Source: Dictyostelium discoideum (Eukaryota). Taken from it: a stretch of 64,000 nucleotides of DNA. Below, one piece after another: positions 43,195 through 45,760 of this stretch. How positions within the stretch are numbered: the stretch's first letter is position 1; the number at the start of each line of letters is the position of its first letter. The position numbers and the translations under genes were made by a program. Location: NCBI GenBank assembly GCA_000004695.1, contig CM000152.2, positions 480,001 through 544,000 of the forward strand. The letters run 5' to 3'. The notes under the pieces were generated by a model, which saw only the letters and a program-made list of their open reading frames with translations, was not told the origin of the DNA and ran no database searches.

Positions 43195-43560
43195 TTAAAA
43201 CTAAAAATATAAAAAAAAATACCCCCATGTTTACATTCCCGGCGGTTATTGGATATTATTAAAAATCTATTTGGGTTTTCGTATTTTTTTTTTTATTATT
43301 AGAATAAAATTAATTCGGTTCCGCTCTCAAAGTTTGCGTTAAACAAATTTTTTTTTTTTTTTTTTTTTTTTAATTTTGTTTTGTTTTGATTTGTTTTTTT
43401 TTTTTTTTCAATTTTATTTTATTATTTTATTTTATTTTTAAAAAATAAATTTATTATAATGTGTTATTTAATATTAATTCAAATGTTTTTTAATCATTTG
43501 AATTTAAATATCAGATGTTTTAATTGTTTTTTAGTTGAATTAAAATATCAGATGTTTTAA
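43195..43560. repeat. Copy A of ~350-bp duplicated segment (moderately GC core CATGTTTACATTCCCGGCGGTTATTGGATATT ... TTAATTCGGTTCCG ... AAATATCAGATGTTTTAAT)
   Basis: Roughly 85-90% identical to 45440..45760 by eye. The terminal motif AATATCAGATGTTTTAAT is itself duplicated in tandem within copy A. It abuts the stop codon of the minus-strand ORF 43540..44256. Confidence 0.6.
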
Positions 43561-45380
43561 TGATACAAGTGACATATCAAAATAATAATGATATTCCTCA
43601 TAGAAACTATTTAATAGTTTAGTAAAACCTTCTTTATTATCTAATTCATAGGTAAATGAATTTAAAGTACAATTACAATGAATTAAAATATAATCCAATA
43701 AAGTTTTATTGTATCCAACTAAAAATGATTTACTTGTATTATGAGAATGATCAATAACCTTTTTTAATGAATTTAATTCTCTTGGTGGATAATAATTAAA
43801 ATTCATTGCTAATGGATGGGCTTCATCACTTTCATCTAATTGAGCATAAATATCAGATTTAACAATTAATTTCTCTAAATGACTAAATGAATCTTTAATC
43901 TTGGAGTATGGTGTAGTTCTAATGATTGTTGTATAATATTGATTTTTTAAAAATCCATTATTATTATTATAATAAAAAATATTGAATTTATTATATCTAT
44001 GTTCTTTTACTGAATTTAAATAGGTATCAAGAATATCACTTTTATAATTACTTAAAATTTTTGATAATAGTTTTAAAAAATCCCAACAAACCATTGAAAT
44101 ATTCTTTACACTATTCCAAATTATTTGTTCAAATTCATTATTTTTTTTATCAATTATAAAATCTTGATTTAAAACCCTTTTTATAATTTTTGAAATTAAA
44201 ATATAATTATTAATCAATTTTAATGATGATTCACCATGGTTGATGGTTGTATCCATAGTTGTTGTTGTTGTTATTGTTGTTGTTGTTGTTATTGTTGTTG
44301 TTGTTGTTGTTGTTATTGTTGTTGTTGTTGTTGTTGTATTAGGTTCGTTATCATCATTATTATTATTATCACTAATATTATTATTAATTTTTAAATATTT
44401 ATTTATAACTGATACAAATATTCCAACTTTTCTTGGTTTTCCACCTGGTAAACAACGTATAGTTGAATAACCATTTGCAACTTAAATTGATTTTAATAAA
44501 TCTACTTGGTATTGATTTTTAATATTCATTTTTTCAATTGTTTGAGGTAAAACTTTAACAAAAGAAAGATTTAAAACTGAATCACTACTAATTAAAGATG
44601 ATAATTTATCCTATTATTAAATTATAATAATTATTAATGTTAATATTATTTATTATTATTATTATTATTATTATTATTATTATTATTATTATTATTATTA
44701 TTATTATTATTATTATTATTATTATTATTATAATAATTATTATTATTATTATTATTTGAAAATAAATATTGAATAGAATCTCTAATTAATGTTGATTTAT
44801 CTAATAATATGGTAAATATGAAACTGAAATATTCATTTCCTATATATTTATAAGAGAATACAGCAAAATAACTTAATTCATGTTCATAGCCTTCTTTTTT
44901 TTGATGAAAAGTGAACCAGTCAAAAATAATAAATAATCTAATAATTTCATTATCTGAATTAATATAACTGAACCAAAATTCAATTGCTTCATCGTATGGT
45001 ATTATATCATAACAATAATTTTTAAATCCAAATTCTATCCATAATTTATCATATGTAAAATCTGAAATATTGGTTAAATTATTTTCTTTGATTTTTTTTA
45101 TTATTGATTCTCTATTATTTTTATAACCACCATTATAATATTGTTTTGATGGTTCGGAAATAATTGCTCTATAAAAATTTCTTAATTTAAATGTTTTAAT
45201 TTTATATCTGACATCTTTAAAAATATCAAATAAATCTTCGAGAATTTGTTCTTGTGTTATGTTTTCTTATTTGATTTTTTAATATTATTTATTATTGTTT
45301 CTCTTTATCATTAAATTCTTTATGAATATTAATAATTGGGTTAACAATAACATAGGAATTATATGTATTTATTTTCATTG
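43540..45380 (-). pseudogene. Interrupted gene of unknown function (possible pseudogene or unresolved introns)
   Basis: An intact ORF 43540..44256 (238 aa, poly-Thr N-terminus) is preceded in the same frame by LPGGKPRKVGIF... and then an in-frame TAA at ~44488. Further upstream there is a >160-codon open frame (~44770..45260: ...IFKDVRYKIKTF...FDWFTFHQKKEGYEHELSYFAVFSYKYIGNEYF...poly-N) with no start codon, and stops in all frames between 44612 and 44640 with no GT donor available. I could not find a single clean spliced model. Confidence 0.3.
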
Positions 45381-45439
45381 TTTCTTTATATACATATAAA
45401 GGATTTTAAAAAAAAAAAAAAAAAAGAGATTTAATTTTT

Positions 45440-45760
45440 AATTTTGGAATATCATTTTTAAAAAACTAAAAAATATAAAAAAAACCCATGTTTACATTCC
45501 CGGAGGTTATTGGACATTTTTTAAAATCTTTTTGGATTTTCGTATTTTTTTTTTTATTATTAGAATAAAAATTAATTCGGTTCCGTTTTTTGATTTGATC
45601 TTTTTTTAAATTTTATTTTTTAATTTTATTTATTTTATTTTATTTTATTTTTAAAAAATAAATTTATTATAATGTGTTTTTTTAATATTAATTCAAATGT
45701 TTTTTAATCATTTGAATTAAAATATCAGATGTTTTAATTGGTTTTTGCAAGAAATCATTC
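45440..45760. repeat. Copy B of ~350-bp duplicated segment, immediately 3' of the histidine-kinase gene
   Basis: See copy A. Its inner end encodes the last residues and stop of the 45688..49170 ORF. Confidence 0.6.

Follow-up and report, generated by a model that had tools for sequence, protein, structure and literature searches.

The locus lies in a 64,000-nucleotide stretch of Dictyostelium discoideum DNA, referred to here as the window, and its genes are read from the minus strand (Table 1). It comprises a hybrid histidine-kinase gene, two shorter annotated genes that follow its 3' end, and two copies, A and B, of a ~340 bp block arranged as direct repeats spaced 2,261 bp apart. Copy B overlaps the end of the kinase gene, and copy A lies beyond the second of the annotated genes. 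HisKA, HATPase_c and Response_reg domains are identified in the kinase by Pfam. A protein of 1,969 aa with transmembrane domains has been described as dhkB (PMC7316887), and the domain architecture and the 1,969-aa length of the kinase indicate that it is probably dhkB. Copy B contains the last two nucleotides of codon Q1142, the following 18 codons, the stop codon, the 3' UTR and ~280 nt of downstream spacer, and the Response_reg match terminates within it. The AATAAA cluster in copy B likely marks the polyadenylation region of the kinase mRNA.

Table 1. Features of the kinase locus, its downstream neighbour and the two copies of the block, in window positions
Feature	Position	Strand	Details
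Hybrid histidine-kinase gene	45688..51677	-	ORFs 45688-49170 and 49254-51677; annotated 1,969 aa
Kinase terminal coding sequence KPIKTSDILIQMIKKHLN and stop (45688-45690)	45688..45746	-	receiver-domain end, inside copy B
Copy B	45408..45746	-	alignment with copy A; source at least for the kinase-proximal part
AATAAA cluster, copy B	45612..45668	-	22-73 nt past the kinase stop
GC-containing core, copy B	45487..45517	-	minus strand reads ATGTCCAATAACCTCCGGGAAT, then GTAAAC
196-aa annotated gene, piece 1 of the recipient	44646..45517	-	45251-44763 homologous to DICPUDRAFT_76175 residues 9-160
296-aa annotated gene, piece 2 of the recipient	43540..44474	-	44403-43558 homologous to DICPUDRAFT_76175 residues 287-539
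Extra 27-nt partial copy TTGAATTAAAATATCAGATGTTTTAAT (plus-strand letters)	43535..43561	-	exact match to copy B 45712-45738
Last codons of the downstream ORF, stop at 43540-43542	43540..43561	-	frame shifted relative to the kinase frame
Copy A	43140..43532	-	alignment with copy B; derived copy for the kinase part
Ex-kinase coding sequence, copy A	43474..43532	-	57/59 nt identical to copy B
AATAAA cluster, copy A	43413..43455	-	homologous to the copy B cluster; 87-124 nt past the downstream ORF stop
Copy A-only 26-nt GC-containing segment CTCTCAAAGTTTGCGTTAAACAAATT	43324..43349		alignment of the copies
Weak similarity of copy A to DICPUDRAFT_76175 residues 590-627	43269..43385	-	score 53
GC-containing core, copy A	43226..43256	-	ATA for ATG, CGC for CTC

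Extent of the duplication and direction of copying

A duplicated block of ~350 bp had been noticed by eye at this locus, and alignment of the two copies confirms real direct repeats that are slightly longer than first noted. The local alignment contains 310 matches, 23 mismatches and 66 gap columns, corresponding to 93.1% identity outside indels. Its score of 171 compares with a null of 25.7 ± 7.4 (maximum 43), obtained by comparing copy A with 300 AT-rich segments of the window, and lies ~20 standard deviations above this background. The block extends from AAAAACCAATT... through ...TCTCTTTTTT(T)n, and homology is unbroken across its A/T-rich middle. Identity is alike in the kinase-proximal part (95.5%) and the distal part (93.7%; Fisher p = 0.62), which argues for a single event. 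The 26-nt segment present only in copy A reflects either a deletion in copy B or an insertion in copy A. When the 64 kb are masked for low complexity, block matches are found between these two sites only, and the block is absent from the loci examined in P. violaceum and D. purpureum. Both copies are base-for-base the same in a second assembly, GCA_054883475.1, which may not be independent of the first and which was the sole match in exact-protein look-ups for other assemblies and strains.

The direction in which the coding part was copied is apparent from the kinase gene. The C-termini of its orthologues end in ...FLQKPIKTADSLIQMN and ...FLQKPVNCAALMRMIKKHME, and the P. violaceum DNA at the kinase end reads ...ATTCAAATGAATTAAAAAACATTTGAATTAA, with the codons kept even at the DNA level. 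Because the terminal codons are conserved in orthologues, copying ran from the kinase to its neighbour, in agreement with the original prediction that one 3' end was copied from the other's. In copy A the ex-kinase coding sequence has become non-coding in the kinase frame, since TTA has changed to TAA at 43504-43506.

The junction between copy A and the truncated gene body is stuttered: a 27-nt partial copy is followed by two filler bases and then by the full copy, which restarts 8 nt further upstream in the template. This 27-mer separates the gene body from copy A, and since its flanks are unlike those of the first 27-mer, simple tandem repetition does not account for it. The other end of the block is a homopolymer run. 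The same nucleotides had been said to be read in different frames by the two genes, and this proves correct. In the kinase frame, CCA ATT AAA ACA TCT GAT ATT TTA ATT CAA encodes PIKTSDILIQ; in the downstream ORF (43540-44256), TCA TTA AAA CAT CTG ATA TTT TAA encodes SLKHLIF-stop, the ex-kinase codons being read one base out of register by the neighbour's frame. The codons for L K H L I F and the stop are provided by the 27-mer at 43535-43561. That the last codons of the downstream ORF lie in this extra copy, and not in the main block, had been missed by eye.

The position of copy B within a conserved domain bears directly on whether both 3' ends were derived from a dispersed repeat or a mobile element, such as LTR-like repeats around a 1.9-kb interior or a MITE. 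The ~340-bp direct repeats do stand on both sides of a 1.9-kb segment, and retroelements occur in the window, where a gene encoding RVT_1 adjoins a tRNA-Thr. However, copy B carries receiver-domain codons that are conserved across genera at both the protein and the DNA level, and it is therefore native to the kinase gene. TG...CA ends are missing from the block, a target-site duplication around the composite is absent from the outer flanks (...ATTTCTTGC and TTAAAAAATT...), and no third copy of the block exists within the 64 kb. No reverse transcriptase, integrase or gag is encoded in the interior, which instead corresponds colinearly to an ordinary hypothetical protein of D. purpureum. The arrangement of few-hundred-bp direct repeats around an internal segment recalls Skipper, DGLT-A and solo LTRs, but here one repeat lies in a conserved host gene, the TG...CA termini and target-site duplication are missing, and the interior is without retroviral-type genes. 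A mobile or terminator-like common source, which the original prediction had allowed for, is thus at odds with a copy B that is integral to the receiver domain and with the absence of LTR or retrocopy hallmarks, and a mobile element is a highly improbable origin for the block; beyond the 64 kb, the block may yet belong to a low-copy dispersed family.

Retrotransposition of the kinase message would be another route to a displaced 3' end. Copy A would then be a 5'-truncated retrocopy, made from the tail of the kinase mRNA and inserted into the neighbouring gene by the enzyme of a non-LTR retrotransposon. On the minus strand, copy A has A15 and A24 runs after the part corresponding to the kinase 3' UTR, and the RVT_1-encoding gene in the window is a tentative sign that this genome contains reverse-transcriptase genes. 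Yet the homology to copy B persists through the A-rich tract (shared CAAATCAAAA) and extends ~180 nt more at 93.7% identity, well beyond the AATAAA cluster, to end in a T-run on the mRNA-sense strand. A target-site duplication is absent here as well, and a retrocopy is exceedingly improbable.

The recipient gene

A single recipient sequence underlies both annotated genes that follow the kinase. Its homologue in D. purpureum, DICPUDRAFT_76175, is an intact protein of 630 aa that is matched in phmmer at E = 3e-11. In tblastn, the two pieces align with it colinearly, at E = 1e-24 for residues 9-160 and E = 3e-24 for residues 287-539. The homology breaks off exactly where the copy A junction lies, and the recipient is without the last 91 C-terminal residues of the D. 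purpureum protein. Its ancestral start has changed from ATG to ATC (45275-45273) and its third codon from TAT to TAA (45269-45267). The reading frame differs between the two pieces, an in-frame TAA occurs just upstream of piece 2 (44484-44482), and a conserved intron position has no GT donor. The 296-aa model requires a 44-nt intron and a start taken from another frame, and the GC content of the recipient is 15-25%, vs 26% for ORF sequence in the window. The recipient is a fragmented, 3'-truncated and probably decaying homologue of DICPUDRAFT_76175, and these lesions suggest that it is non-functional. Some function may persist, as the open stretches of 179 and 313 codons are long for neutral decay. 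In a neutral simulation with 3.5% substitution, the chance of no new stop is 0.16 for 179 codons and 0.06 for 313 codons, values that fit either a pseudogene or a constrained gene.

Unitary and duplicated pseudogenes combine the same characteristics, namely colinear homology, a lost start, premature and in-frame stops, a missing donor and 3' truncation. The recipient differs from them in that it is annotated as two protein-coding genes and in that long ORFs persist. Its homologue sits elsewhere in the D. purpureum genome. No homologue of the recipient ORFs from outside the genus was found in an index of 5.8 billion proteins, from which Dictyostelium proteins are apparently absent, because the best match of the kinase there is P. 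violaceum at 70%. The region enclosed by copies A and B has no Pfam match. A search for the missing 91 codons downstream of copy A (43139-42640) was not significant (17/300 shuffles; anchored test p ~0.09), and tblastx identified no additional recipient sequence beyond copy A. The possibility that the recipient is a decayed copy of the kinase gene was also considered and rejected, as tblastx found nothing. Copy A itself has a weak and tentative similarity to the C-terminal region of DICPUDRAFT_76175 (Table 1). Scores as high arise in 1.2% of shuffles and in 0.6% of the other AT-rich segments, and a gene of this family may have left its 3' end as a relic in the distal half of the block.

The state of the recipient qualifies the original proposal that one gene acquired its C-terminus and terminator from the other. 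The acquisition stands, in that six codons, the stop and the AATAAA cluster come from a copy of the kinase sequence, but the description of two different genes was overstated, the recipient being a truncated and probably decaying fragment. Chimeric and fusion ORFs and overprinted genes offer parallels, with the KTSDILIQ helix of the receiver reread as KHLIF-stop and the UTR and poly(A) signals of the donor included; here, however, six codons only are involved, and the recipient looks like a decaying fragment. It seems unlikely that adaptive capture of a 3' end has produced a functional chimeric gene, in which an expressed 296-aa ORF would depend on the captured codons, stop and poly(A) signals. 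Such a gene would account for the 313 open codons in AT-rich DNA, which survive neutral simulation in 6% of cases at the 3.5% substitution level, and would be consistent with the annotation of the 296-aa ORF as a gene in GCA_054883475.1 and with the copied AATAAA cluster 87-124 nt past its stop. The ORF is nevertheless one piece of a gene with an ATC start, a TAA at codon 3, the in-frame TAA at 44484-44482 and no GT donor at the conserved intron. Its model needs the 44-nt intron and the start from another frame, its GC content falls under that of ORF sequence in the window, and its six new residues have no recognisable feature.

Formation of the duplicated 3' end

The repeats are probably explained by a single DNA-level local templated duplication of ~340 bp, of an ordinary kind. 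Copying would have started at codon 1142 of the kinase gene, passed through the 18 receiver codons, the stop and the AATAAA cluster, continued into ~280 nt of downstream spacer, and finished at the homopolymer run. The copy sits in the same orientation 2,261 bp beyond its source, abutting a neighbour without its last ~91 codons. The frame of this neighbour crosses the junction, reads six ex-kinase codons and reaches a stop, with the copied AATAAA cluster next. The common C-terminus and terminator would thus be a by-product of the duplication. Such an event provides a small, clean case in which local templated duplication gives a truncated neighbouring ORF a stop and polyadenylation signals, and also an example of a few codons reread out of frame.

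From the stuttered junction and the homopolymer end, we infer that the copy was made by repair from a template or by template switching during replication (ectopic gene conversion, or MMBIR-like) and not by transposition. The short direct-orientation copy a few kb away, the homopolymer end, the stuttered junction and the lack of transposon hallmarks all resemble the products of FoSTeS/MMBIR and of SDSA-type gene conversion. The comparison differs from those systems in that the mechanism is read here from junction anatomy alone, and ~6% divergence blurs microhomologies. Either a resident gene may have received the copied block, or two copies of the block may have come to enclose a captured part of a gene copy. 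Both alternatives remain because in P. violaceum, the one outgroup covered at the kinase locus, the kinase is followed by a MatE gene, and because DICPUDRAFT_76175 has a different location in D. purpureum. No relics of the P. violaceum neighbours, MatE or others, were found in the spacer.

A composite origin of the block that gave rise to an expressed chimeric gene is very unlikely. In such a history the distal half, with the GC islands and the core, would be what is left of the 3' end of an earlier DICPUDRAFT_76175-family gene lying just after the kinase, and ectopic conversion would have been anchored in that old homology. Conversion would have overwritten the 3' end of a resident paralogue and dragged in the last codons of the kinase. 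The C-terminus of the resulting chimera would be an overprinted receiver-domain helix, and its terminator would be that of the kinase.

The GC-containing core

A 28-nt core within the block occurs exactly twice in the window, where no occurrence is expected. In the 196-aa gene model of GCA_054883475.1, the start codon, a 22-nt first exon (45517-45496) and the donor GTAAAC all lie in the copy B core. The core could have a function of its own and have been carried along in the duplication, serving either as start codon, mini-exon and donor or as the promoter of the next minus-strand gene. The minus strand of copy B reads AAAAAATGTCCAATAACCTCCGGGAAT followed by GTAAAC, and a single-intron model from there yields the annotated 196-aa product; Dictyostelium genes commonly have a short first exon and an A-rich context around the start. 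However, 12 codons with homology to DICPUDRAFT_76175 (EQILEDLFDIFK...) fall within the annotated 281-nt intron, as does the colinear ancestral start, so that the mini-exon was apparently introduced by a gene predictor to rescue an ORF without an ATG. In the copy A core, ATA stands at the place of the start codon, and no ORF comes after it. With one mismatch in 28 nt, vs ~2 expected from the block average, the core has no excess conservation, and equally strong GC islands are frequent in the non-ORF DNA of the window (26 in ~20 kb). A functional core is thus distinctly unlikely, and the mini-exon of the 196-aa model is doubtful. For annotation, the 196-aa and 296-aa hypothetical genes are better regarded as pieces of one decayed gene. 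A literature search with the core sequence returned human Parkin primers as its sole matches, and a metagenome scan with the core gave no match, a result that carries no weight on copy number.

The core had also been suggested to be a small RNA, and there is next to no probability that it or the block encodes a small structured RNA. Its GC content is above that of its surroundings and T-runs follow it, and as a GC-richer island in an AT-rich spacer it is similar to the class I RNAs and the DUSE-associated snRNAs. Small ncRNA genes of Dictyostelium have a DUSE (WCCCAYAA) ~60 nt ahead of the gene, and the class I RNAs share the motif CCTTACAGCAA. Unlike these genes, the blocks have neither a DUSE nor the 11-nt class I motif nearby, and the latter is absent from the window. 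Rfam comparisons yield no match at E <= 10 in 40000-49000 or 42650-43600, and a scan of the whole window at gathering scores finds none in the blocks and a tRNA only. For either strand of either copy, fold z-scores lie between +0.56 and +1.97, and the folds are no more stable than those of shuffles. Indels around the core distinguish copies A and B, and conservation of the core is not above that of its flanks. The locus gives no evidence of a new RNA, cis element or mobile element and opens no new question.

Two other candidates were considered and rejected. The first, a tRNA-related element, has its only possible counterpart in a tRNA at 26383, the sole one in the window. The second, the GC-richer stretch at 42828-43078 taken as a structured RNA, has fold z-scores of +1.7 and -0.3. 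The sole DUSE-like match in the window lies at 57900.

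Extent and conservation of the duplicated block

All four methods applied place copy A and copy B, two direct copies of a ~340 bp block, in the same orientation with a spacing of 2,261 bp. Their local alignment contains 310 matches, 23 mismatches (93.1% identity) and 66 gap columns within a few indels, the biggest of which, a 26-nt GC-containing piece (43324–43349) and a T-rich piece, are both specific to copy A. The alignment score of 171 is far above the scores that copy A reaches with 300 further AT-rich segments from the window (25.7 ± 7.4, maximum 43), and the likeness is therefore not compositional. 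With low-complexity masking on, mutual similarity within the 64 kb is limited to A and B. The duplicated block of the original prediction is thus borne out, with its extent refined.

The corresponding chromosome of a second assembly, GCA_054883475.1 (CM142509.1), was located via the neighbouring 624-aa LRR protein; over 21.9 kb it is 99.77% identical to the window. The 14 differences that separate this locus, L002, from the window all fall below 43000 (29491–43000), so that copies A and B are the same in both assemblies. Twelve of the 14 are length changes in or beside A/T homopolymer runs, and the other two are substitutions (42427 and 42887).

Reading frames and direction of copying

The 1,160-codon minus-strand ORF of the hybrid histidine kinase (45688–49170) terminates in ...FLQKPIKTSDILIQMIKKHLN-stop, and a second ORF, 43540–44256, terminates in ...FDMSLVSLKHLIF-stop. 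The same nucleotides are read in different frames, as had been claimed: ATTAAAACATCTGATATTTTAATTCAA is read ATT AAA ACA TCT GAT ATT TTA ATT CAA in the kinase and (TC)A TTA AAA CAT CTG ATA TTT TAA in the second ORF. The proposed capture of a 3’ end is likewise right, since the second ORF closes in copied, out-of-frame kinase 3’ sequence. Overlooked by eye was that this ORF terminates not in the main copy A but inside an extra 27-mer (43535–43561), an exact match to 45712–45738 in copy B. Two bases separate the 27-mer from the full copy, whose restart point in the template lies 8 nt further upstream; the two 27-mers have different flanks, so the arrangement is not a plain tandem repeat.

Three observations mark copy B as the ancestral version of the kinase’s terminal codons and 43474–43532 as derived. 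First, the upstream gene encodes PAS, HisKA, HATPase_c and Response_reg domains, and the Response_reg match extends to L1151 of the ORF, i.e. within copy B. Second, the nearest available relatives have conserved termini, ...FLQKPIKTADSLIQMN (Polysphondylium violaceum) and ...FLQKPVNCAALMRMIKKHME. Third, the P. violaceum DNA at the kinase terminus, CAAAAACCTATTAAAACTGCCGACAGTTTAATTCAAATGAATTAAAAAACATTTGAATTAA, is nearly identical to the Dictyostelium sequence. In the kinase frame, copy A has TAA in place of TTA at 43504–43506. In the second assembly’s annotation the kinase product has 1,969 aa; dhkB is also 1,969 aa long (PMC7316887), and this equal length makes dhkB the probable candidate identity. 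The P. violaceum kinase (AJWJ01000010.1; L001 ~15000–15035) terminates in ...IQMN-stop through one additional A (ATGAATTAA versus ATGATTAAA), and the bases beyond (AAAACATTTGAATTAA) still match Dictyostelium coding sequence for KKHLN-stop. Either the frame shifted recently or that assembly contains a sequencing error.

The recipient gene and the GC core

The recipient ORFs, minus-strand pieces between the copies, contain no Pfam domain, and the indexed protein collection, which seems to lack Dictyostelium itself, yields no relatives of them. An exhaustive HMMER search identifies a single relative, D. purpureum DICPUDRAFT_76175 (630 aa), with two colinear tblastn matches in the window. The 196-aa and 296-aa genes annotated here, whose models were reconstructed via an exhaustive GT-AG search, evidently represent separate parts of a single ancestral gene.

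Coordinates of the block copies and of the recipient pieces (L002, matching locus in GCA_054883475.1)
Feature	Window position	Strand	Type or basis
Copy A	43140–43532		block duplicate; sequence reading of 43000–46000, repeat finder, MAFFT, local alignment
Copy B	45408–45746		block duplicate; sequence reading of 43000–46000, repeat finder, MAFFT, local alignment
DICPUDRAFT_76175 residues 9–160	45251–44763	minus	tblastn 35%, E = 1e-24
DICPUDRAFT_76175 residues 287–539	44403–43558	minus	tblastn 28%, E = 3e-24
196-aa annotated gene	44646–45517 (L002 5897–6768)	minus	annotation in GCA_054883475.1
296-aa annotated gene	43540–44474 (L002 6940–7874)	minus	annotation in GCA_054883475.1

In a gap-free codon alignment of the N-terminus, the D. 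purpureum ATG lies opposite ATC (45275–45273) and its codon 3, TAT, opposite TAA (45269–45267). The two pieces are in differing frames, with an in-frame TAA at 44484. In D. purpureum the intron comes after residue 186; the matching Dictyostelium site, an AAT run without any G, has no splice donor. Homology ends precisely at the 27-mer junction, and the D. purpureum protein extends 91 residues beyond; these were not found downstream of copy A. Thus, the recipient is a fragmented, 3’-truncated gene and probably a decaying one. A substitution simulation fits neutral decay and also some constraint; the recipient would appear to be non-functional.

Both annotated models seem to be artefacts of gene prediction on a pseudogene. 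The 296-aa model works only with an intron of 44 nt and with translation beginning in another frame. The 196-aa model draws its start codon, splice donor and 22-nt first exon from the copy B GC core (minus strand, AAAAAATGTCCAATAACCTCCGGGAAT|GTAAAC) and continues with a 281-nt intron. As the ancestral start, in its colinear place, and 12 codons with homology to DICPUDRAFT_76175 fall within this intron, the mini-exon looks like the predictor’s device for an ATG. Copy A has ATA at the core start and no coding sequence after it.

The 28-nt core occurs exactly twice in the window, with one mismatch between copies versus ~2 predicted from the block average, and islands with at least 12 G+C per 28 nt are common in the window’s non-ORF DNA (26 in ~20 kb). 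The suggestion that the core is a small RNA finds no support: Rfam scans at the core and blocks give no match, the core folds no more stably than shuffles on either strand, and a DUSE or class I motif is absent. Nor is there positive evidence for a cis element. The GC islands of the block’s distal half might be left over from a coding 3’ end in the DICPUDRAFT_76175 family. The lead is weak: at 43385–43269, copy A translated on the minus strand resembles residues 590–627 at the end of the D. purpureum protein, with a score of 53, a value reached in 1.2% of shuffled sequences and 0.6% of other AT-rich segments.

Immediately downstream of copy A lies a 250-nt segment of ~33% GC (42828–43078) that holds one of the two assembly SNPs (42887, A/T). 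It has no ORF >30 codons, no GCA_054883475.1 annotation, no Rfam match and no fold signal (z = +1.7 and −0.3); DRLVNFH versus DLLVHYH is a non-significant resemblance to residues expected past the truncation point of the recipient.

Origin of the duplication and neighbouring features

Divergence is alike in both block halves (95.5% and 93.7% identity, p = 0.62) and the A/B homology is unbroken across the A/T-rich middle, which argues for one event copying the block as a unit. An LTR element is ruled out, as one repeat lies inside a conserved host domain and what stands between the repeats is an ordinary gene; the repeat also has neither TG...CA ends nor a target-site duplication, leaving the mobile-element source raised in the original prediction unsupported. 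A retrocopy of kinase mRNA is ruled out by homology reaching ~180 nt beyond an AATAAA cluster and A-rich tract and by a T-run end on the sense strand. Templated repair or replication template switching fits the stuttered junction and homopolymer end, and either may have duplicated the block. The A/B duplication next to the decaying gene is best read as an ordinary local duplication.

A resident gene may have received the block in its 3’ part, or a partial gene copy may have been captured between two block copies. The available outgroups do not separate these histories: the P. violaceum locus retains the CLC gene upstream and DnaJ downstream, but a MatE gene adjoins the kinase, and in D. purpureum the recipient’s homologue sits in a different gene neighbourhood. 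Synteny with P. violaceum (L001; window 56072–57730 and 36517–37431) is partial, with the CLC gene encoding a chloride channel and DnaJ on the opposite strand in both; where P. violaceum has MatE directly after the kinase, the window has the decayed gene, the LRR gene and one with a CH domain.

A sub-threshold SNORD74-like Rfam match at 47132–47199 (+), antisense to kinase coding sequence, is most likely chance (22 bits versus a gathering score of 41, E = 0.25). Elsewhere in the window, a gene with an RVT_1 domain (27083–28588; L004 1–2096) lies ~600 bp downstream of a tRNA-Thr(TGT) gene (26383–26466) and may be one of Dictyostelium’s tRNA-gene-targeted non-LTR retroelements.
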